Of a stretch of 43,032 nucleotides of DNA, positions 1,303 through 40,204 are shown piece by piece (position 1 is the first letter of the stretch; every line of letters starts with the position of its first letter). A model generated the notes under the pieces. The model worked only from the letters and a program-made list of their open reading frames with translations. It had not been told where the DNA came from and ran no database searches. The stretch comes from a virus (taxonomy: Duplodnaviria; Caudoviricetes). The position numbers were made by a program, and so were the translations under genes. The stretch is taken from positions 1-43,032 of IMG/VR virus record IMGVR_UViG_3300037602_000058; one strand, 5' to 3'.

Positions 1303-1333
1303 TTTGCCAACTCCTGGTTTGTTTCAGGTTCTA

Positions 1334-1362
1334 GGCATACGCGCATTTGACGGTGCCGTCAA
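1334..1362 (-). promoter_or_regulatory. sigma70-type promoter with overlapping palindromic operator
   Basis: TTGACG-17-TATGCC; palindrome TTGACGG-TG-CCGTCAA at 1347-1362. Confidence 0.75.
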
Positions 1363-4046: not shown

Positions 4047-4501
4047 CGTTCCCAATTCCCGTTCTGGATTTCCAGATTGGACGCCATCATGCCGCGGTAA
4101 GCTTCCATGAACGCGTCTTGGATCGCCTGCAGCACGAACGGGTGCGGGTCGGTCGGCAACCCCGGATGGTGCCGCACGATCGCGGCATACGCGCGGCCCG
4201 CCTTGCCTGACAGAATGTCCCGCATCGCCGGCGACGGCTCGAGCGGCACCGCAACGAATGTTTCGGGCGTGTGCGGGGTGTCGCCATAAAGCGCTTCGTT
4301 GACGCGCGCCATGGCCCCTTGTTCCGGCTCGTATTCGGGCCAAAGGTTCAACGCCTCGTAAGCGCCTGGGACTTTCGCGAGCTCCTGCGCGCGATCGAAA
4401 CCGGTAACAAACGCATGCTTGAGCGCGTCGGAAAGATCGCGCGGCCGCAGTTTATCGCGCGCCGAAACCTTGTTTCCCATGCTGTCAAATGTGGATGCCA
4501 T
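4043..4501 (-). CDS. hypothetical protein, first gene of cassette between terS and terL
   Basis: 152 aa; AGGAGTTGGCACAATG leader. Confidence 0.75.
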   Translation of the reverse strand: MASTFDSMGNKVSARDKLRPRDLSDALKHAFVTGFDRAQELAKVPGAYEALNLWPEYEPEQGAMARVNEALYGDTPHTPETFVAVPLEPSPAMRDILSGKAGRAYAAIVRHHPGLPTDPHPFVLQAIQDAFMEAYRGMMASNLEIQNGNWER

Positions 4502-4550
4502 TGTGCCAACTCCTGGAATTGATGGTTGACGGGGTGCGCCCCGCCGCCTT

Positions 4551-4566
4551 TTGACGCTTACGTCAT
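4551..4566. promoter_or_regulatory. palindromic operator-like site
   Basis: TTGACG-CTTA-CGTCAT directly after the terS stop. Confidence 0.65.
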
Positions 4567-5331
4567 TTAAGCCGTTCCGTCAACCATCTTTGCATAGGCC
4601 TCGGCCGCTTCCCGGGGGTCGGTCGTGGTAAGTTGCAGCGATTTTACCTTGGCTTCCATGTCGAGCCGCAGTTTATCGTCAAAGGCGCCCAGGATCCGGC
4701 CGATTTGCTCAAGCGCCTTGTCCTGGTTGGCAAACAGCACCTTTATCCCGTCCTTGGTTTGCTGGACCCCCCGGTACAACATGCGCGCGCCTGGCGACAG
4801 TTTGGTGGTATCCATGGGCACAATGCGGGTTACCCCCTCGCCCTCGCACTCGGCGCATTCCGGGTTCGGGTCGACCGAAAAACGATAGCCGAAGCCGCCG
4901 GCAATGTCGGGCATGGGCACGAGGGCGCCGGTCTTGTCGTTGGGCATCTTTTCCCATTCTGCCAGCGCCTCGAGATATTCCCGCTCTTTCCAATGGTAGC
5001 GGCCGCCGACGCCCCAGCAATGCCGGCACGCCCCAATTCGCTGCGAAATCAATTCGTTAGGATCGACGAAAGCAATTGCGATGTAGGTTTCCATGAGTTT
5101 TCGCGCGTCGAATTCAACGGCTTTTTGGGCCGCTTGCTGCCTTGCCAGCTGCAAAGCCTGGACGCGTAGGGCCACGTTAGGGGCATCCGCCAAACGCGAC
5201 GCCTCGACCCGCACGGCCTCAACGGACATGTTCTTGGCGTCGTACGCTTCCCGGTAAGCGGCGGTTTGGTTCAAACCCTCCGCGCCCACTAGGTGCGCAA
5301 ACCGTTCCTGCTTTTTCGTCAACGCTTTCAT
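4567..5331 (-). CDS. terS: terminase small subunit with Cys4 (Zn-finger-like) insertion
   Basis: LTKKQERFA...NQTAAYREAY...VEASRL HTH typical of TerS; CRHCWG...CAECEG; upstream of terL; start moved to ATG 5331. Confidence 0.9.
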   Translation of the reverse strand: MKALTKKQERFAHLVGAEGLNQTAAYREAYDAKNMSVEAVRVEASRLADAPNVALRVQALQLARQQAAQKAVEFDARKLMETYIAIAFVDPNELISQRIGACRHCWGVGGRYHWKEREYLEALAEWEKMPNDKTGALVPMPDIAGGFGYRFSVDPNPECAECEGEGVTRIVPMDTTKLSPGARMLYRGVQQTKDGIKVLFANQDKALEQIGRILGAFDDKLRLDMEAKVKSLQLTTTDPREAAEAYAKMVDGTA

Positions 5332-5368: not shown

Positions 5369-5720
5369 AAAGCCCGTACTGGCCCGTATAAAGCCCGTAC
5401 TTTTCGTTCGTTAGGGCTTTTCTATTTTAACATATATTTCAATTACTTAACACCCCTATAATACCTAATAATATGAAAAGCCCGTACAAACCCAAACCGC
5501 ATGTATGGAAAGCATAACTAGTTAGTCGTTATAGGCCCATTAACTAATTAGGTATTTTACCGGCTTCCGGTTTGGCTGGTACGGGCTTTTTGGGGGCGTC
5601 CGCATAAGTTATTGAAAACCAAGCGGTTTAACAGGCCCGTACGAACGGTTAAATTTGCTAGGTATTATAGGGTTGACCGCCTAAGCCCCGCGCTTTACAA
5701 AACAGCCGGGAAAAACGGAA
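5369..5720. other. AT-rich non-coding region with direct and inverted repeats; putative replication origin or pac region
   Basis: GCCCGTA copies at 5369-5379, 5381-5389, 5390-5400, 5476-5487, 5633-5642 and inverted at 5579-5590; IRs at 5454-5467/5659-5672 and 5437-5449/5605-5617. Confidence 0.6.
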
Positions 5721-5729
5721 AATATAGTT

Positions 5730-6389
5730 ATGCAAAAACAGCTGCAGAAATACCAGGTACTTTTAGACCCGTCAGGCAAAAGCGTTTCGGTGGGGTATTG
5801 GCCGCAGCCCGGGTTTACCGTTTTGAACGAATTCGACGACATGGACAGCGCCAAGCGCGCCGCCGCCAGCTGGGCCGCCGTCTCTTACGAAATCGGCATG
5901 CTGCAACGGTGGTTCGCCCGGTTGAACCCGGACGCGGGTCTGGCATCGGTTTTTGATCTCCATCAAGTCCCGCCGCGCGACATCACGCCCGATGCGACAC
6001 AAGAGATATACCAGACCGTCGTGGGCATCTTTGAAGCCCTGGTTATGGCAGAGCCCGGGACGATGCTGGAAAAATTCCAGCGCATGGGCGGCTCGCCTTT
6101 GCTGGCGCACTTTTGCGGCGTCCGTTCGACCCCTCTAACGCCCCGGGAACGCGCCATGTTCCTGCAGCAAGAGCAAACGGGGCACCGGACCGAAGACGCC
6201 GGGACCGTCGCGCGGGTGGCGAATGACCGCCGTTCCAAGCTGGTTATTGAGCCCGCCACGGGCCGGACGTGGTCGAGTGCTGCCGATTTGGCCCGCGAAC
6301 TGGGTTGCCACCCCGTTTCGCTTTATGCTCACTTGGGCGCCCGGAGAACACCGGCCACGATCTATAAAAGGGCGTTTGAATATGCGTAA
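5730..6389 (+). CDS. hypothetical protein with C-terminal NUMOD1-like HTH
   Basis: 219 aa; C-terminal LVIEPATGRTWSSAADLARELGCHPVSLYAHL. Confidence 0.7.
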   Translation: MQKQLQKYQVLLDPSGKSVSVGYWPQPGFTVLNEFDDMDSAKRAAASWAAVSYEIGMLQRWFARLNPDAGLASVFDLHQVPPRDITPDATQEIYQTVVGIFEALVMAEPGTMLEKFQRMGGSPLLAHFCGVRSTPLTPRERAMFLQQEQTGHRTEDAGTVARVANDRRSKLVIEPATGRTWSSAADLARELGCHPVSLYAHLGARRTPATIYKRAFEYA

Positions 6390-8589: not shown

Positions 8590-9429
8590 TTACCAGCGCC
8601 GGAACAGCTTGGCAAGCAACGCCCAAAATCCGGTTGGTTCGGTCTTCGGTTTCGGCGCCGGTGCATCGACGTTAACGCGCGTCGGATCCGATTGCGGGGG
8701 TTTGGGCGCAGGCACGTCGACGCGGGGGGATGTCCACGCCGGGGGTGTTTCCGGCAGGGTCGTCGGCTTGGTCGCGCCGGTTTGCCCCCAGCCGGCCGCC
8801 ACAAGCGCCGCGTGGAACTTCCAATGGTTGGCCGTAACTTCGGCGTCGGATCCGTCAACCCCGTTCACGATGCGCCGGGGGTGCAAACCGGGCGGGTTGT
8901 CGAGTGCCGAAGGGAAGCCAAACCGGGAAAGCTTGATGGCGCCGTGTTTGTCGCGGCGAAATTTCCCCTGGACCATGCCTTGCACCGCGATCTTGGCGCC
9001 GGTGACGGGCTCGAGCGCGCGCTCCGGATGCTTGCGCAGCGGGACGCCCAGCAAGCGTTCGAATTTCTCGTAATTCGGCCAATGCGTCAACTGGATCGGC
9101 CCCCGGCCAAAAGCGCCGTCCCGCCAATAGGGGGTTTTCACGCCTTTGAGTTTGCCCGAAGCGTACGCGCGGTCCAGCCTGGCGATCACGGTTGCGTCGG
9201 ACGGGTTCTTGTCCTTGTGCCACGGCATCACGGTTTCTTTGATGCCCAGCATGTTGCCGCCGGTTTCGCGGTGGACGTTCGCGAGTATGTGCGCGGCGTG
9301 GTGGGCGTCGTTCACTTTGGACGACTGCATTTCCGACAAAAGCGCATTCATACCGTCCACCTGGGCGTCGGTGAGCGATCCACCAAAAACGTTCTTGCGC
9401 ACGGCATTGTAAAAAATCGTTCTGTTCAT
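8590..9429 (-). CDS. endolysin, GH19/lysozyme-like
   Basis: AHILANVHRETG and FGRGPIQLTHWPNY motifs; ATG 9429 with GGAG RBS; head of lysis cassette. Confidence 0.85.
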   Translation of the reverse strand: MNRTIFYNAVRKNVFGGSLTDAQVDGMNALLSEMQSSKVNDAHHAAHILANVHRETGGNMLGIKETVMPWHKDKNPSDATVIARLDRAYASGKLKGVKTPYWRDGAFGRGPIQLTHWPNYEKFERLLGVPLRKHPERALEPVTGAKIAVQGMVQGKFRRDKHGAIKLSRFGFPSALDNPPGLHPRRIVNGVDGSDAEVTANHWKFHAALVAAGWGQTGATKPTTLPETPPAWTSPRVDVPAPKPPQSDPTRVNVDAPAPKPKTEPTGFWALLAKLFRRW

Positions 9430-9449
9430 TGTGGTTTTCTCCGGTTTGT

Positions 9450-9491
9450 TAAACAAAAACCCCCGCAGCGTTGGCAAACTGCGGGGGTTTT
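9450..9491 (-). terminator. intrinsic terminator-like hairpin between promoter and endolysin
   Basis: 13-bp stem AAAACCCCCGCAG (9456-9468)/CTGCGGGGGTTTT (9479-9491), 10-nt loop, T-rich tail on minus strand. Confidence 0.8.
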
Positions 9492-9527
9492 CGGTCGGGT
9501 CAATCCTTGGGAGGCTTGTTCCTACGG
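9450..9527 (-). ncRNA. predicted ~75-nt small RNA or attenuated leader
   Basis: Promoter at 9533-9561 and terminator at 9450-9491 bracket it; loop UUUGCCAACG; contains CCUCCC. Confidence 0.5.
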
Positions 9528-9532
9528 TGCTG

Positions 9533-9561
9533 AACCTATCCGCAAATGACGGCGCTGTCAA
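9533..9561 (-). promoter_or_regulatory. sigma70 promoter with operator palindrome
   Basis: TTGACA-17-TAGGTT; ATGACG-GCGC-TGTCAA at 9546-9561. Confidence 0.8.
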
Positions 9562-10245: not shown

Positions 10246-12672
10246 CTATCGTTTGAATTCGGCAGCGGTGGTTTCGCTGATCGCTTTGTTTTGGGCTTCG
10301 CTATAGACGCGCGCCACATCTGCCGGCGTCTTGAGGTTCTCCCACGGTATCGAGCCGATTTTGCAGAACAGCCGCGGTTTGGTGTTGTCGGGCGCCACGA
10401 TCGACTTTGTGCGGCCGTTGTTGTCGGCAAGCGCGGGGTGCCAGTCGTAGCCCAGCGCTTGCATGATCTGGCGCCGTTTGTTTCGCGGGATCCGCAACCG
10501 CAGCCGGTCGATCAACTGATCCAGCGACTTTGATGAAATCCAACCGCCGCAGAAACCGGGCGTATCTTCGCCGACGGCTTCCAATATTTCCTGTTCTAGG
10601 TGCCCGCGGCCCGAAGCCACGGCAACGTCGGTCGAGCTCGTACGCGGCGCGCGGATCACAAGGCGCGCCGGATCAAAGCGCGCTTCAATCGCCCGCGTGT
10701 GGAGATAGTGCCCCATAACCCGGATGCCATAATTTTCGCCGTGTCCGGCATATTCCCCCAGGCCCAAAAGCCAATCGCGCAAATTGGCCACGTAAGCGTC
10801 TGTCATGCCGTCGCGCTGCATGTCCGCCTTGGTTTGCTGGGCGCAGAAAAACGCCCCGTACCGGCGGTCTTCGTCCACGATCGGGACGCCGTCTTGGTGG
10901 TTCGTAACGATAATTCCGTTTGCGCGGTTATCCCCAGTTATTTCTTCGACGCCTTTGCCCTCAATCGGTATCGTTCGATTGGTTACGGTCGTTTTGAAGC
11001 CTTCGAAAAACTCGCGGCGGTCGGCGGCGTAAACTTCGTCCAGGCCCAGGAACAGCTTGCATTCAATCCAGCCATTAAAGTTGCTGTCCCCCTTCACCAT
11101 CTTTTTCATGTTCGGCATATGGGCGTAGTGCGAGCCCACGGCGTTTGACATGATCAGCAGCAAGAACGATTTAAAGTTGCCCTGGGCGCCTTGAACGACA
11201 GGCCACCATTGCATCTTTGCACCGGGGTTCTGCACCACGCTTGCCATGTACGAGAGCAATAGCTCGAGATCGTCGCCATGGGGCAGCATGCGCCGCATGT
11301 GGTCAACAAACGGCGACGGGTCGCCCGGCGTAATGTCAACGTGGGCCGGGAAATAGGCATTGGCCAGGCGCTTACCGCTATCCATGACCACGCCGCCGGC
11401 GCCATGTTCCGGCCGGAAGCAAAGCCGATCGGCAACGGTTGGTTTGAACGTCCGCGCCTGGGTGAACGCTTCCCACGCGCTCGAAGTCATTTTCTTGCCA
11501 TCGGCGGAAAGGACAAAATCATATCCCCCATAAACCGCATCAAACCGCCCTTGGTTGAGCAAGTCGCCGCCCGGCGTGAGGATCTTGTGAACGCTGGCGA
11601 CATAGACGCAGCCCCCAAAATGCAAAAGCTGGTCGTGGTGTGACTTGATGCCGTCCCCGGGTCGTGTCTCAAAACCGGACGCGGCGGCTTGGTCGCTTGT
11701 AACGGGCGGCGGTGGTGGCACGGCGGCGGCTTCGGCGGGTGCTTTGTAAACGCCGGTAACCAGCTGCCGTGCCTTGAGGATTGTTCCTTCCAGGTAGTCG
11801 GGCCGGTCTTCCCATTTCTGCCGCAACAGGGCGCTTCGTCGCATGAGCCGTTCCATGCGTTCGCAGTTACGCCCCGTCCAAAACGCCAGCTGGTTTGCAA
11901 GCGACTGGTCCGCGCTGGACGCGTCGTACGGGTTGCCCCCGGACCCGGGCCAGCGTTTCGCCAGCGCGTCCGCATCGGCGGCCCATAGTTCGGCAAAAGA
12001 CAGTTTGCCCGGGCCGCCGAACGCATCGGCGGCGCTGTTGCCCCCCGACCGCAAAGCCCGGTTCAAAAGTTCGTCGTCGTCTTCCGGCCCGGACCATTCG
12101 GGGTCCGGTTCCGTTGTCCAGTCCGCCGGCGTCTGCCCGGCCACGGGCTCGAAGTATTCGGCAACCAGCGAAGCCACGGCGGCCGTGTGGTCGGTGGCGG
12201 CGGATCCGGTCGCGGACAGCCCGGTTAGTGCAACAAAACGCTCTTGGCTGTATAGCTCGATACCCAACGGGACGTTTTTGTTTCGGTGCGGCGGCAAACT
12301 CGAATACCGCCCTATGACGTGCAAGCCTGTCCCGGATTGCGACACTTCGACGCACGCACCCGCAAACCGTCCGCAAAGTTCGTTGGCAAGTTGTGACCAC
12401 GCGCCGTCGATCAGCGCTTTGTCTATGTCGAGAAAAAAGAACGGATCGGCAGCGGTAAACACGAAGCCCACCCCGGCCATGCCCTGGGCGCCGCAGTACG
12501 CGCCCGCCTGTTCGTATGTGCCCCAGTCGGACGGGTTCGTGGACGACGCCCGGCGCCCATGGATCGGGGAGTATGGGATTTTGTCCCATTTTTCGCGCGG
12601 CGCGTTCCACTCAAGGCGCCACGCGACGAATTGTGGCCATTCGGCCAAAGGTGCCAACGGTTGTGCGAGCAT
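10246..12672 (-). CDS. primase-polymerase/SF3 helicase fusion (NrS-1-like)
   Basis: AEP motifs FLDID, SQSGTGLH, IELYS; helical DxSSADxxLAxxLAFWTG; Walker A GAQGNFKS, Walker B LGLDE. Confidence 0.9.
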   Translation of the reverse strand: MLAQPLAPLAEWPQFVAWRLEWNAPREKWDKIPYSPIHGRRASSTNPSDWGTYEQAGAYCGAQGMAGVGFVFTAADPFFFLDIDKALIDGAWSQLANELCGRFAGACVEVSQSGTGLHVIGRYSSLPPHRNKNVPLGIELYSQERFVALTGLSATGSAATDHTAAVASLVAEYFEPVAGQTPADWTTEPDPEWSGPEDDDELLNRALRSGGNSAADAFGGPGKLSFAELWAADADALAKRWPGSGGNPYDASSADQSLANQLAFWTGRNCERMERLMRRSALLRQKWEDRPDYLEGTILKARQLVTGVYKAPAEAAAVPPPPPVTSDQAAASGFETRPGDGIKSHHDQLLHFGGCVYVASVHKILTPGGDLLNQGRFDAVYGGYDFVLSADGKKMTSSAWEAFTQARTFKPTVADRLCFRPEHGAGGVVMDSGKRLANAYFPAHVDITPGDPSPFVDHMRRMLPHGDDLELLLSYMASVVQNPGAKMQWWPVVQGAQGNFKSFLLLIMSNAVGSHYAHMPNMKKMVKGDSNFNGWIECKLFLGLDEVYAADRREFFEGFKTTVTNRTIPIEGKGVEEITGDNRANGIIVTNHQDGVPIVDEDRRYGAFFCAQQTKADMQRDGMTDAYVANLRDWLLGLGEYAGHGENYGIRVMGHYLHTRAIEARFDPARLVIRAPRTSSTDVAVASGRGHLEQEILEAVGEDTPGFCGGWISSKSLDQLIDRLRLRIPRNKRRQIMQALGYDWHPALADNNGRTKSIVAPDNTKPRLFCKIGSIPWENLKTPADVARVYSEAQNKAISETTAAEFKR

Positions 12673-12678
12673 GACGCG

Positions 12679-12981
12679 TTACGCCGTCGCCAGATAGGCC
12701 GCAGCCTTTTCCCGTATCTCTTGCGGCGCGGCAAGGACCAGCGCGTGCCGATCCCCCAGCCCCTGGGCAACAACGGGGATTACCCCGCGTTCGATCGCGG
12801 CGGACAAAACCGCGCGTTTCAGTTCCGGCATGGTGCCAAAGACGTTGTTGATGGTCCCCAGCGATACGCCGGCGGCGGTTGCCACACTCTCGCGCGTAAT
12901 CCACTGGTACCCGACGCTGCACGCCAGTTCCAGCGCCGCGTCCAGGATGCGGGCGTCCCGGTTCTCGATAATTTTAGCCAT
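12679..12981 (-). CDS. TetR-like HTH transcriptional regulator
   Basis: RILDAALEL...GYQWITRESVATAAGVSLGTINNVFG; ATG 12981 with AAGGA RBS. Confidence 0.85.
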   Translation of the reverse strand: MAKIIENRDARILDAALELACSVGYQWITRESVATAAGVSLGTINNVFGTMPELKRAVLSAAIERGVIPVVAQGLGDRHALVLAAPQEIREKAAAYLATA

Positions 12982-13312
12982 TGTCTGCGGTCCTTTTGGG
13001 CGTTCGATCGCCGGATGGTATAACGCTATTGACGACCCCGTCAAGTAATCTGCGGCGTTGGGGTGTGGGGTCCCCCAGAATAGCGGCCGTTAACGTGTCA
13101 GGATAGTCTGTTATGCGAACGCGCCACGCCGGGCGGTCCGGGGGTGTTTTTGGTTTGCGCGGCTTCGCAGACTTTGGGCCGTATCCGGGCGTGACGATCC
13201 GCCGAATGGTCATATGATGGACCCCGAAGTGATCGGCGACCGCGGCAAAGCTTTTCCCGCGGTCGATCATTTTTAACACGCGGTCGCGCGGAATGTGTTT
13301 TTTCGCGGGCAT
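12974..13312 (-). CDS. HTH DNA-binding protein
   Basis: KMIDRGKSFAAVADHFGVHHMTIRRIV; TAATG coupling with the VRR-NUC gene. Confidence 0.7.
   Translation of the reverse strand: MPAKKHIPRDRVLKMIDRGKSFAAVADHFGVHHMTIRRIVTPGYGPKSAKPRKPKTPPDRPAWRVRITDYPDTLTAAILGDPTPQRRRLLDGVVNSVIPSGDRTPKRTADNG
13017..13044 (-). promoter_or_regulatory. promoter/operator upstream of the TetR-like gene
   Basis: TTGACG-ACCC-CGTCAA at 13029-13044; TTGACG-16-TATACC. Confidence 0.75.
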
Positions 13313-14333: not shown

Positions 14334-14360
14334 TTTTGCCAACTCCTAGTTTGTAAAAAT

Positions 14361-14389
14361 ACTCTAGCCCTAAATGACGGGGGCGTCAA
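14361..14389 (-). promoter_or_regulatory. sigma70 promoter with operator palindrome
   Basis: TTGACG-17-TAGAGT; ATGACG-GGGG-CGTCAA at 14374-14389. Confidence 0.8.
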
Positions 14390-16876: not shown

Positions 16877-16899
16877 TTTTGCCAACTCCAAATTTTTAT

Positions 16900-16939
16900 T
16901 TGACGGGATCGTCATAACGGTTTAGGGGTAGGCGGTCAA
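16900..16939. promoter_or_regulatory. overlapping divergent promoters sharing one operator
   Basis: Plus TTGACG(16900)-17-TAGGGG; minus TTGACC(16939)-17-TATGAC; palindrome TTGACG-GGAT-CGTCAT at 16900-16915. Confidence 0.7.
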
Positions 16940-19908: not shown

Positions 19909-20007
19909 TGGGGGCCGTGGGTCGGGTTGGCTGTAATCTCTCGACTTGGCCCCCAGTAGGGCCGAACCGCCGTAAATTCCCCCCGGTGGTTCGGCCCTTT
20001 AATTTTT
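19909..20007 (+). terminator. two hairpins; the second is an intrinsic terminator-like structure before the polymerase RBS
   Basis: TGGGGGCC...GGCCCCCA, then AGGGCCGAACC...GGTTCGGCCCT-TTAATTTTT. Confidence 0.7.
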
Positions 20008-20020
20008 GGAGTTGGCGCGA

Positions 20021-22267
20021 ATGTGGGCGATTGAGCAACACGCAACGATTGATTTTGAAACGTATAGCGAGGCGGGCCACGTCTGGGACGAAGACGGCCA
20101 AACCTGGCGCGCCCCACCCGGCGCCCAGAAAAAGGGAATTGCGGCCGTTGGCGCGCTGGCATACGCCGAACACCCCACGACCGAAGTTCTAACTATGTCC
20201 TATAGGTTGCCCGGGGACGTGGCGGTTTCTCGGTGGCGGCCGGGGCTGCCGAACCCCCAGCGCCTTTTTGACCACATCGCCGCGGGTGGGTTGCTCGAAG
20301 CGCATAACGCCATGTTTGAGCGCGCCATATGGTTTTTCGTTTGCCGCCGGCGCTACGGTTGGCCAGACCTACCCCCGCAACAAATGCGGTGCAGCATGGC
20401 GAAAGCCCGGGTGAACAACTTGCCCGGCGCGCTGGAAAATTTAACGGCGGTGTTGCCGGTCCAGGTACGCAAGAACCCCGACGGCAAACGGCTATTGAAT
20501 AAATTTTCCATACCCCGGAAACCGACCAAAAAAGACCCGCGCACGCGGATCCTGCCGGCAGATGATCCCGACGACGCGGAAAAGCTTTACGCCTATTGTG
20601 ACGACGACGTGCGCGCCGAAGACGAAGCGAGCGCGTTGACTATGCCCATGAGCGTTAACGAACTGCGTTTCTGGCAGCTGGATCAGCGGATAAACTGGCG
20701 CGGGGTTGGCGTCGATCGGCGGTCCGTCCGAAACATGATTTCGGTACTGGAACAGGCTGTGGGCAAGTACGGCGCCGAATGCCGGGAAATAACCGGCGGC
20801 ATCAAGCCAACCGAAGTTCAGCAGCTGCGCGGGTGGATGTGCGCCCACGGGCTTGACCTTGGAAGCCTAGACGCCGAAGCGATCGAGAACGCGCTAGAGC
20901 GGCCGGGCTTGGCGCCGCACGTTCGACGGGTTCTTGAAATCCGTCAATTGATTGGTTCCGCCAGCGTCAAAAAGCTTTACGCGTTCGAACGGTCTGCCAG
21001 CAACGACAACCGCGTGCGGAATATCATCACACACCACGGCGCGAGAACGGGGCGCCCGACCGGCGACCTTGTGCAGCCCCTCAACATGCCAAAGGCCGGC
21101 CCGGATTTGATTTACTGCGGGTGCGGCAAGCCTCACGCGCGCCGCGACGTGTGCCCGTGGTGCTGCGTGCCCGTGCCGCCGGAACCACGGTTTTACAAAT
21201 GGCCGGACGCGCCTAAAGGTCACACGGAAAACCCCGTTGACGCGGTGCAAGAAATCATGGCGTCCCGAAGCCTCGAGACAGTTGAATACTTTTTTGGCGA
21301 CGCGCTGCTTTCCATTTCCGGATGCATGCGCGGCATGATTTGGGCGGACGAAGGCCACGACTTGATCGCGTCGGATTATTCGGCGATTGAAGCCGTGGTA
21401 ACTGCGGCGCTTTCCGGGTGTGAGTGGCGCATGCAGGCTTTCCGGGAACGCAAGGATATTTACCTTGTTTCCTGCGCGGCCATGGGCCTGGGGCTGGCAT
21501 ATGAGGATTACAAGCAATATAAACTTGAACACGGATCCGACCACCCGCACCGACAGAAAAAAGGTAAAGTTGCGGAGCTCGCGCTAGGCTTTGGCGGTTG
21601 GGTTGGCGCCTGGCGTCAATTTGACCCGGACGGCGCCACGGACGAAGAGGTTAAGGAAACAATCCTAGCTTGGCGTAAAGCGTCCCCTGAAATCGTGGAA
21701 ATGTGGGGCGGCCAGGAACGCGGGCGCCCATGGGACCGCGATTACCGCTTGGAGCGTTACGGGTTCGAAGGCGCGTTCGTCAACGCCGTGCAGTACCCGG
21801 CGCAGTCTTTCCAGGCGCACGGGATTACCTTTTTTATGAGGGGCGATTGTCTTGTGGTCCGGCTGCTTTCGGGCCGGGAATTGTGCTACCACGGGCCGCG
21901 GCTGCACCCATCAAGCCGGGAATATGTCGGCGCCGGCGTCTTGGAAATCACTTATAGGACGTGGAACAGCAACCCGAAATATGGCCCCGTTGGCTGGGTC
22001 ACAATGCAGACTTACGGCGGCCGCCTTGCGGAAAACATTATCCAGGCCACCGCACATGACATTCAACGATACGGCATTGAAGCGCTTGAAGCCGCCGGGT
22101 ACCCGATCGTTTTGCACGTCTATGACGAAAACGTGGCCGAAGTTCCGCACGGGTTTGGGTCGATTGAAGAGTTTGAAAGCATTATGTCGAGAATGCCGCC
22201 ATGGGCTGCGGATTGGCCCGTCCGCGCCTCGGGCGGCTGGCGCGGACGGCGGTACCGGAAAGCTTGA
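20021..22267 (+). CDS. family A DNA polymerase with 3'-5' exonuclease
   Basis: IDFETYS, AHNAMFE, YC.DDV, ARTGR, ASDYSAIE, GKVAELALGFGG, ENIIQA, HVYDE; start from GGAGTTGGC leader. Confidence 0.95.
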   Translation: MWAIEQHATIDFETYSEAGHVWDEDGQTWRAPPGAQKKGIAAVGALAYAEHPTTEVLTMSYRLPGDVAVSRWRPGLPNPQRLFDHIAAGGLLEAHNAMFERAIWFFVCRRRYGWPDLPPQQMRCSMAKARVNNLPGALENLTAVLPVQVRKNPDGKRLLNKFSIPRKPTKKDPRTRILPADDPDDAEKLYAYCDDDVRAEDEASALTMPMSVNELRFWQLDQRINWRGVGVDRRSVRNMISVLEQAVGKYGAECREITGGIKPTEVQQLRGWMCAHGLDLGSLDAEAIENALERPGLAPHVRRVLEIRQLIGSASVKKLYAFERSASNDNRVRNIITHHGARTGRPTGDLVQPLNMPKAGPDLIYCGCGKPHARRDVCPWCCVPVPPEPRFYKWPDAPKGHTENPVDAVQEIMASRSLETVEYFFGDALLSISGCMRGMIWADEGHDLIASDYSAIEAVVTAALSGCEWRMQAFRERKDIYLVSCAAMGLGLAYEDYKQYKLEHGSDHPHRQKKGKVAELALGFGGWVGAWRQFDPDGATDEEVKETILAWRKASPEIVEMWGGQERGRPWDRDYRLERYGFEGAFVNAVQYPAQSFQAHGITFFMRGDCLVVRLLSGRELCYHGPRLHPSSREYVGAGVLEITYRTWNSNPKYGPVGWVTMQTYGGRLAENIIQATAHDIQRYGIEALEAAGYPIVLHVYDENVAEVPHGFGSIEEFESIMSRMPPWAADWPVRASGGWRGRRYRKA

Positions 22268-32980: not shown

Positions 32981-32995
32981 TTGGCCAACTCCTAT

Positions 32996-33032
32996 ATAAA
33001 AACCGGGCTCGCTTGATTGCGGCCCGGTTTTT
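32996..33032 (-). terminator. intrinsic terminator-like hairpin after tail tube gene
   Basis: AAAAACCGGGC...GCCCGGTTTTT with A/T tracts on both sides. Confidence 0.75.
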
Positions 33033-33061
33033 ATTTAACCGCTAAATGACGAAACCGTCAA
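33033..33061 (-). promoter_or_regulatory. promoter/operator palindrome
   Basis: ATGACG-AAAC-CGTCAA at 33046-33061; TTGACG-17-TTAAAT. Confidence 0.7.
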
Positions 33062-39076: not shown

Positions 39077-40204
39077 TCAAGCTCCTGTGTATTCGGCGAC
39101 CGACGCGGAAAGCGCCGAAGTCTTGCCGTCGGTTGCGATCTTGTGCGGCGCGGGGACCGAACGAACCTGCAGCGCCGCGTCAAGCGCGACCGCTTCGGCG
39201 CCCTTCGGAACGTCTTTCAGCCCCAGCTTTTCGACGCCGTATTTCACGACCGCGTCAAACGTCATGGCCGCGTGATCGAACGTCCCGACGTGCTGGGCAA
39301 GGCGTTCCGCCAGGCTGGTCTTGCGCGCCAGCGTCTTGATCACGGCGGCCTCGTCGAGCACGACCATCCCCGAAACCTTGCTCTTGAGGTCCGCGAGTTC
39401 CTTGAAAACGGCGTCCATGGCGGCGTTTTCCCCGCCCTCGTCTTCGTCCTCGTCTTCGGCGGCTGCTGCCGCGGCGGCCTCTTCGGCGTCCTTGGCCGCT
39501 TTTTCCTCGGCGGCGGCGGCGGCGGCCTCTTCGGCGTCCTTGGCCGCTTTTTCCTCGTCGGTCATTTCCGACTTTTCGTCGTACTTGTCGGCGGCGGCCG
39601 CCTCCAGCGCATCCATCCGGGCCGCGAGTACGGCAAGCATTTCCTTAATTTCGTCCATGGCGGGTTCGAGCTCCTTTGCATCAACCGTGAAAACCATTTG
39701 ATCCAGGACCGAAACGGACGGCCCCATGCGCCCCTCTTTGACAAGTGCCAAATGATTTCCCCGAAGCTGGCGCTGGACGGCGTCGTACTTTTGCCCGTTC
39801 CATTCGCCAGGGGTGAAATCATAAACGCACCGGTACCCGCAGGACAGTTCCTTTTTACCATTTTTGATCTTTTCGGCAAGCGCGCCGCTAAAAATCTTGA
39901 GGTTGGCTGTCATGACGCCATCGGTAACTTTGACATTTTCCCCGATTACACCGTCCACGCCCACCTCTTCGGCCGGCGTCGCGCCTTCGCCAAGCATGGT
40001 GTGGTCATCAATGATCGGCATAAGCTGGAAGCTTGCCAGCGTGTCCGGGTGCGCCAGTTCCTCGGCCGGGCGGTACACTTGGTAAATGCGGTCTTTGTCC
40101 TCGGCGCCGATCTGGGCGCCGGAATACGGAAATATGCCTTCCCGGCTGATTGGGTTGTCCCGAACCAGGAAAAACGAATTTATGTCGTACTCTCGCGCCG
40201 TCAC
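39077..40204 (-). CDS. prohead protease/scaffold (DUF2213-like)
   Basis: NPISREGIFPY, VYRPAEEL, KKELSCGY, GNHLALV.EGR.G; acidic scaffold tail; GTGA start 40204. Confidence 0.9.
   Translation of the reverse strand: MTAREYDINSFFLVRDNPISREGIFPYSGAQIGAEDKDRIYQVYRPAEELAHPDTLASFQLMPIIDDHTMLGEGATPAEEVGVDGVIGENVKVTDGVMTANLKIFSGALAEKIKNGKKELSCGYRCVYDFTPGEWNGQKYDAVQRQLRGNHLALVKEGRMGPSVSVLDQMVFTVDAKELEPAMDEIKEMLAVLAARMDALEAAAADKYDEKSEMTDEEKAAKDAEEAAAAAAEEKAAKDAEEAAAAAAAEDEDEDEGGENAAMDAVFKELADLKSKVSGMVVLDEAAVIKTLARKTSLAERLAQHVGTFDHAAMTFDAVVKYGVEKLGLKDVPKGAEAVALDAALQVRSVPAPHKIATDGKTSALSASVAEYTGA
39471..39557. repeat. 48-bp-period tandem duplication (EEKAAKDAEEAAAAAA x2)
   Basis: 39 identical bp at 39471-39509 and 39519-39557. 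Confidence 0.9.

Follow-up and report, generated by a model that had tools for sequence, protein, structure and literature searches.

We have identified, in the genome of a phage, a candidate small RNA of about 74 nt that probably acts in trans as an antisense RNA, likely blocking the translation of early genes that share a tag at their start codons, on top of a likely TetR operator. The stretch analyzed here (the window; 43,032 nt) is a 43-kb myovirus-type record that is 97% complete and encodes a primase-helicase, DNA polymerase, exonuclease, ssDNA-binding protein, helicase, terminase, contractile tail, and endolysin; no integrase was found among the 66 window ORFs scanned. Searches for a close cultured phage found none, the best matches being 50% for the polymerase and 53% for the capsid. 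The endolysin as bait retrieved no viral loci, a search of genome contigs with terS found no prophage, and a search of the same kind with the primase gave 38 distant loci. A pattern search with operator plus tag returned 20 stretches, nine of them in four related records (G001 to G004), which with the window phage (G000) make up the tag-bearing clade; in a primase scan that made no use of the tag, G001 to G004 ranked first among 71 loci. The polymerases of the three relatives with an intact RNA unit (G002 to G004) are 64 to 77% identical to that of the window. Window-like sequence makes up a small share of five RNA-library runs; their contigs represent a 96% sister strain, with even cover of the promoter, the hairpin, the lysin, and an AT-rich origin-like stretch, a pattern that points neither to a separate short RNA nor to transcription as such. 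This strain has no changes in 9441-9526, three in the promoter spacer region, and an untagged leader downstream of the 1348 promoter. We also observed that window positions 5370-5730, upstream of terS, are AT-rich, noncoding, and origin-like, with repeated (G)TACGGGC units, and that the G003 polymerase is a 1,030-aa ORF interrupted in frame by about 276 extra, intein-like residues (L029 11513-12342).

Table 1. Coordinates of the features discussed (window positions unless a contig is named).
Feature	Position	Strand	Remarks
Candidate RNA promoter, TTGACA-17-TAGGTT	9533..9561	-	-35 9561-9556; -10 9538-9533
Candidate small RNA, about 74 nt	9453..9526	-	ends predicted
Terminator-like hairpin, 13 bp, then U-run	9456..9491	-	
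Hairpin loop UUUGCCAACG	9469..9478	-	invariant seed GCCAAC = 9475-9470
Endolysin, untagged	8590..9429	-	start 26 nt past hairpin
Primase-helicase	10246..12672	-	marker of syntenic site
TetR-family HTH gene, candidate palindrome binder	12679..12981	-	PF00440, E 2.7e-5
Tag GGAGTTGGC, 9-bp seed	1306..1314	-	ORFan 1302-949, 117 aa, directly past terL
Tag, 7-bp seed	4505..4513	-	ORFan 4501-4043, 152 aa, directly past terS
Tag, 9-bp seed	14338..14346	-	ORFan 14333-14130, 67 aa, past helicase
Tag, 9-bp seed	16881..16889	-	PAPS-reductase-family gene 16876-16118
Tag, 6-bp seed (7 with G-U)	20008..20016	+	DNA polymerase 20021-22267
Tag, 6-bp seed	32984..32992	-	67-aa gene 32980-32777, insert in tail module
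TGAC-N6-GTCA over -35 of candidate RNA, likely operator	9547..9560	.	
Operator/promoter palindrome	1348..1361	.	upstream of 1302 tag
Operator palindrome	4552..4565	.	upstream of 4501 tag
Operator/promoter palindrome of TetR-family gene	13030..13043	.	
Operator/promoter palindrome	14375..14388	.	upstream of 14333 tag
Operator palindrome	16901..16914	.	between 16876 tag and divergent exonuclease operon
Operator/promoter palindrome	33047..33060	.	upstream of 32980 tag, hairpin in between
Second operator promoter unit (relatives)	L025 3554-3775; L028 17764-17965; L032 5724-5885; L220 180-333		

The initial annotation had described a good promoter, TTGACA-17-TAGGTT, about 35 nt ahead of a 13-bp terminator-like hairpin. 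The promoter sequence and the distance stand (predicted +1 near 9526, hairpin start at 9491, minus strand), but "good" is too strong, the -10 box TAGGTT agreeing with TATAAT at only three of six positions. A consensus scan of the window listed neither the promoter nor the terminator, because of this -10 box and because the loop exceeds the scanner's limit. The hairpin itself was fully borne out, with 13 Watson-Crick pairs (9491-9479 with 9468-9456) around a 10-nt loop and a U-run behind them. Folding gave the RNA a single stable hairpin; the 79-nt stretch containing it reached -34.9 kcal/mol (z -4.5), and none of 200 shuffles was as stable. The loop is of the CGCCAA type, UUGCCAAC. An Rfam search of the window gave no match at an E value of 1 or less. 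On the opposite strand, no gene start faces the hairpin, and in both the window and G002 to G005, the flanking genes (on the primase side and the lysin) have the same orientation as the RNA.

The GCCAAC seed of the loop is the complement of GUUGGC in a tag, GGAGTTGGC; this hexamer lies between the Shine-Dalgarno site and the AUG, inside the ribosome footprint. The window holds six exact copies in total, all 3 to 4 nt 5' of an ATG; GGAGTTGGC-N2-5-ATG gave six matches versus 0.03 expected. The 9-mer GTTGGCAAA gave five matches versus 0.73 expected, three of them in the leaders of 1302, 14333, and 16876, where the loop complement had been reported, and one being the hairpin itself. The GUUGGC core was likewise found where it had been reported, in the leaders at 4501, 32980, and 20021, so that all six genes are confirmed. 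The 9-mer inside terS (4726-4734), which had been offered as a reason for caution, is on the plus strand, whereas terS is on the minus strand; it is therefore not a target and the caveat falls away. A seventh GTTGGC match, at 39912, was not counted as a tag, the ORF behind it, an output of a crude gene caller, merely shadowing the protease gene in another frame. The initial annotation had also counted a 12/15 match with the flanks included; the count is right, but the additional positions are held in the stem by pairing and show no covariation with the leaders, those of G004 going on with A while the G004 loop has C.

All 32 copies of GGAG(G)TTGGC in G000 to G004 lie in a single orientation 1 to 5 nt ahead of an ORF of at least 40 aa, as an asymmetric repeat at the ribosome binding site (RBS) a few nucleotides 5' of the ATG. 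In the window, the tagged genes are spread over 32 kb, the lysin next to the RNA gene is untagged, and inhibitory structure is absent from most tagged leaders. Five of the six tagged window ORFs have no homolog in nine relatives, and among 43 loosely tagged ORFs, BLASTP joined only the polymerases of three genomes (this gene is loosely tagged in G003 and G004 too) and four other pairs, two of which are shadow or internal frames. Since these mostly unrelated ORFs occupy recurring slots (past terS, past terL, beside the helicase, in the tail module, and at the polymerase), the tag has been repeatedly attached to unrelated genes. When 413 window ORFs were compared with nine relatives, no protein tracked the tag and no window gene was restricted to tag-bearing genomes. 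As a separate observation, a terminator-like hairpin with a C-rich loop lies directly before the polymerase or the preceding gene in the window (19958-19998, plus strand), G002 (38671), and G003 (29402).

The first reading of the sequence had overlooked a palindrome, TGAC-N6-GTCA, over the -35 box of the candidate RNA. Eleven copies occur in the window, versus 0.31 expected, between 1348 and 39072. Most of them overlap a TTGAC -35 box, and five of the six tags have a copy 24 to 66 nt upstream. In 17 records examined, 14 had a homolog of the TetR-family gene, and in 11 of these the palindrome lies no more than 130 nt upstream. The palindrome is likely the operator to which this protein would bind. 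In G014, the TetR helix-turn-helix has diverged and TGAC-N6-GTCA is replaced by another palindrome; this phage seems to have switched to TGAAC..GTTCA over the -10 box along with the altered helix-turn-helix. At the RNA promoter, the perfect palindrome is present in the window and G002 only and not in G001, G003, G004, or G005; with the operator in two of these six genomes, the timing of the RNA may differ. The palindrome over -35 boxes is family-wide and extends far beyond the tag clade (many of L038-L103, G007-G013, G015-G017, and G019), and the TetR gene beside the primase carries it; a literature search for this operator string found no paper. At the tail-module insert gene, the operator promoter and the tag are separated by a hairpin with a U-run (32996-33034, minus strand), whose counterpart is present in G002, G005, and G014, which suggests antitermination or processing.

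The RNA unit is conserved among the relatives. The -35/17/TA..T promoter layout is kept at the syntenic site of G001 to G005, and in G002, G003, and G004 the promoter, some 30 nt, and a terminator hairpin with the loop CCGCCAAC(C) follow one another shortly past the primase; the G001 record ends 25 nt past the -10 box, inside the RNA. RNA lengths at this site are 69 to 77 nt in G002 to G005 and G014. Across the four hairpin sequences (window, G002 to G004), 6 of 11 stem pairs have changed on both sides, and none of 500 shuffles reached this covariation score, which derives from only four sequences and a structure that we supplied. The U-run is on the GCCAAC strand in all four hairpins and on the other strand in the window only. 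G001 to G004 share one common origin and were first found by the tag pattern; therefore, only the hairpin counts as independent evidence there. The proposed pairing of loop and shared leader gains support from this comparison, the loop hexamer being kept on unrelated stems where the tags are kept.

G000, G002, G003, and G004 each contain exactly one GCCAAC terminator loop, out of three to five terminator-like hairpins per genome. Tags are enriched in 5 of 17 genomes (p 1e-7 to 1e-9 with a crude gene caller), of which four have exactly one such loop; none of the 12 tag-poor genomes has enriched tags or a GCCAAC terminator loop. A distant complete relative, G019, taken as an 18th genome, is a counterexample, with a GCCAAC terminator loop past the primase and no tags; its terminator (L103 12349-12560) follows a 34-aa ORF, and its stem is built of an origin-like repeat, CCCCGTAT. 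By eye, the postprimase slot of nine outgroups holds a protein gene or a tRNA in place of the RNA unit, and in L234 a promoter-RNA-terminator unit has another interior. A covariance model built from four sequences and run against 96 sources found no new clade member, G005 appearing only at an E value of 0.34. Other features of these regions were observed: tRNA-like sequences lie behind promoters in relatives (L124 1320-1400; L226, past the primase of G008), and G002 to G005 have, before the lysis-side gene, a second operator promoter with a 130- to 220-nt leader and a hairpin, which is absent from the window. The gene behind this second unit is annotated as a lysin in G004 and G005; the unit is possibly an attenuator or a second small RNA.

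In two relatives where the tags have changed, the RNA has changed too. G005, whose polymerase is 74% identical, is nested within the tag-bearing genomes in both trees, with G003 in the polymerase tree (98/97) and with G001 and G002 in the terL tree (100/100). It keeps the promoter-short RNA-terminator unit, but the loop reads ACUCCCUCCC, and GTTGGC occurs once at its gene starts versus 0.33 expected. Instead, CAC precedes 13 of 55 ATG genes, compared with 0 to 3 in eight other genomes scored. The unstructured 5' segment of the G005 RNA pairs with leaders of its own genome in helices of 10 to 16 bp; its five best scores were matched by none of 100 shuffles, and its preference for CAC leaders or for the ten first-after-operator leaders by none of 174. 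In G014 (polymerase 67% identical), four leaders start with GTCACGA and the RNA at the syntenic site carries the complement, a circular observation in that this leader group was picked from the RNA. Scores are also better for a set of nine first-after-promoter leaders (p 0.004; 0/101 shuffles), and in an own-leader test free of the grouping, none of 100 shuffles was as good.

In cross tests, the GTTGGC leaders of all five tag-bearing genomes were favored by the four GCCAAC RNAs (p<1e-3, to a large extent by definition), which showed no preference for CAC or GTCACGA leaders, and the G005 and G014 RNAs favored only their own leader class. These pairing tests were post hoc, with one genome each and our own helix-plus-accessibility model. 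The matching segment in G005 and G014 is mainly the 5' part of the RNA, not the loop. For the same part of the other RNAs, the number of better-pairing shuffles per 100 was 98 for the window, 94 for G004, 25 for G002, and 17 for G003; the suggestion that a CCUCCC motif acts as an anti-Shine-Dalgarno element in the window RNA is thus not upheld. We also noted that UGUGCUCC, in the 5' part of the G003 RNA (L028), is complementary to GGAGCAC(A/G) in the leaders of three or four genes of G003, 17 of 100 shuffles doing equally well, and that the loop of the G014 RNA (L484), CCAGCC(C), is the complement of a GGCUGG present in the leaders of both the TetR gene and the tail-module insert gene, the slot of the latter bearing GUUGGC in the window clade.

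From these sequences, we infer that the RNA is transcribed, pairs in the cell, and is repressive. The locus would be transcribed into an RNA of about 74 nt ending in the terminator hairpin. At six scattered genes, the exposed GCCAAC loop would meet its trans partner, the GUUGGC tag that separates the Shine-Dalgarno site from the AUG, and pairing would block the loading of the 30S ribosome on all of them. TetR protein would close the TGAC-N6-GTCA promoters, and the accumulating RNA would silence the tagged early genes for accessory and replication functions; some of these genes sit in packaging or tail operons and might otherwise be translated from late read-through mRNA. The perfect seeds at the six tags are 9, 7, 9, 9, 6, and 6 bp, and full-structure cofolding gained -1 to -4.5 kcal/mol, which is no better than for untagged leaders. 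With a seed of 6 to 9 bp, a host chaperone may be needed; a chaperone or a kinetic effect would be required because the longer pairing that follows kissing in plasmid systems is not available here.

The seed is also short for blocking on its own, and in a different use of the same pairing, the RNA would guide a nuclease or other protein to the tags, or stimulate translation, rather than simply repress it. The complementarity and the switch data fit this equally well, and the RNA and its targets share the operator promoter type in the window and G002, so they would be made simultaneously; however, the ribosome footprint covers the tag, an inhibitory structure that the RNA could open is missing from most tagged leaders, and no window gene is limited to tag-bearing genomes, and we judge this unlikely. 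It is similarly doubtful that the tag is read by a protein like T4 RegA or RegB, or is a favored extended RBS, with the hairpin an ordinary terminator or a cis antisense element. T4 RegB cuts GGAG in the Shine-Dalgarno sites of early genes and RegA binds start regions, as described in PMC3014915, and GCCAAC loops are found in G019 without tags and commonly in unrelated prophage-like loci. Such a reading does not account for the exact complementarity of two conserved hexamers, one in the loop and one in the tag, for the joint absence of tag and loop from G005 and G014, or for the 10- to 16-bp helices of the G005 RNA with its own leaders; moreover, no candidate protein tracks the tag and no gene start lies opposite the hairpin. 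A sense-strand decoy for a protein was ruled out by the conservation of the promoter and U-run on the GCCAAC strand.

The initial annotation had also proposed that the terminator gates the lysis genes, and gating could be taken as the unit's sole function, in the manner of lambda pR'-tR', with the short RNA a by-product. The window endolysin does begin 26 nt past the hairpin with no other promoter seen between them, and gating is possible there; in G002 to G005, the second promoter, leader, and hairpin cut the unit off from the lysis gene, and yet the unit is kept, which does not support gating as a conserved role. Nor does a gate require a fixed loop sequence. Gate and guide are compatible, as in the StxS precedent (PMC7547250). 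Gating alone is very improbable. We give equally little credence to the tags being DNA microhomologies for swapping accessory cassettes behind fixed promoters. Unrelated ORFs do follow the same tag at syntenic slots, and the phage encodes exonuclease and ssDNA-annealing genes, but a homology of nine bases is short, tags are found on core genes as well (pol, ssb), and the antisense loop is left without a reason.

Repression by an antisense RNA, the reading that we favor, has partial parallels. R1 CopA is a plasmid copy-control antisense RNA with a CGCCAA/UUGGCG kissing seed, and a UUGGCG loop motif was reportedly named in a 1998 paper on the Inc RNA of ColIb-P9. In RNA1 of pSA564, the terminator hairpin at the end displays a CGCCAA loop as kissing seed, and when three of the kissing bases are mutated, copy number goes up to the same extent as on loss of the RNA (PMC8129170). 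Like these, the phage RNA is short and its terminator hairpin doubles as a kissing loop; the CCGCCAAC loop of G002 to G004 contains CGCCAA, and many tags read UUGGCG. Plasmid RNAs of this kind are cis encoded, fully complementary to one structured target, and proceed from kissing to longer pairing, whereas the phage RNA has no opposite-strand target and matches many dispersed leaders over 6 to 9 bp. With no cis target and no Rfam match (E of 1 or less), the window RNA is not a member of the CopA/Inc/RNA1 type.

P4 CI RNA is a phage antisense RNA that acts on its own immunity operon. C4 of P1/P7 is a phage RNA in which loop-displayed pairing near the RBS blocks translation and whose specificity switches between relatives, as P1/P7 heteroimmunity (PMC12197685). 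Loop-displayed pairing near the RBS and a specificity switch between relatives are features that our RNA is predicted to share. C4 and CI belong to temperate phages, where they are processed from the immunity operon on which they act; the candidate targets of ours are six to nine unlinked genes in a phage with no integrase seen, and it has one stable hairpin and no Rfam match, where C4 has a covariance model, a cloverleaf, and two guide loops. StxS is a short RNA with its own promoter and terminator that is encoded before lysis genes and acts in trans (PMC7547250), and SviR is a multitarget RNA acting on phage mRNAs (bioRxiv 2022.04.08.487710); in the available portions of these sources, neither is described with a repeated private tag at start codons. 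The alphaproteobacterial cuckoo/AbcR sRNAs, to which the window RNA had been likened, have two to four adjacent hairpins with CCUCCUCCC loops (PMC4615179). A loop-displayed seed on variable stems is common to both, but with one hairpin, another loop, and no Rfam match, the window RNA is not a cuckoo RNA. Separately, the cuckoo loop motif does appear as ACCUCCUCCC in the prepolymerase hairpin loop of G003, and the loop of the G005 RNA resembles it.

The closest counterparts of the tags are the SAS/ESAS elements of cluster K mycobacteriophages (PMC3203893) and Microbacterium cluster EF phages (PMC7302621), overconserved RBS motifs near the ATG of nonstructural genes, often with an upstream inverted repeat. 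According to these papers, their function has been unexplained since 2011 (PMC3203893; still in PMC7302621), and an RNA or protein partner has been suggested. The tags resemble them as asymmetric RBS motifs in one orientation with an inverted repeat upstream (five of six window tags); they differ in length (9 versus 13 nt) and from both published consensuses in sequence, and, unlike in these phages of actinobacterial hosts as so far described there, a complementary RNA was found that changes together with the tag.

Loops of this kind are widespread without tags: GCCAAC-loop terminators occurred at 43 of 120 unrelated loci on prophage-like contigs, a count that includes many near-copies. These contigs (L272-L383), unrelated and, as a guess from promoter style, Firmicutes-like, carry a strong sigma70 promoter, a 55- to 75-nt RNA, and a terminator whose near-invariant loop, G[CGCCAA]C, sits on stems that vary; the unit is directed away from a gene on the opposite strand. 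No GGAGTTGGC tags were found, ten RNAs tested had no Rfam match, and the Rfam search of the side loci showed only one weak tmRNA fragment. There is perhaps an even chance that the nonintegrating clade borrowed a plasmid-type CGCCAA kissing hairpin as a trans-acting master switch and marked each new accessory gene with a 6-nt address next to its start codon, and that address and guide were rewritten together at least twice. Our literature search, which covered mainly the main texts of open papers, found no report of a phage antisense RNA directed at a tag repeated at gene starts; 38 uncharacterized phage sRNAs are listed in a supplementary table of PMC12197685.

If this readdressing did occur, it would supply the missing partner for phage start-associated sequences, naming an RNA as a candidate reader of such motifs, with three natural tag/guide pairs in the window clade, G005, and G014. 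A lytic-type phage would then time a whole set of unlinked genes by means of one hairpin loop, and the tag and guide parts would constitute small orthogonal translation switches.
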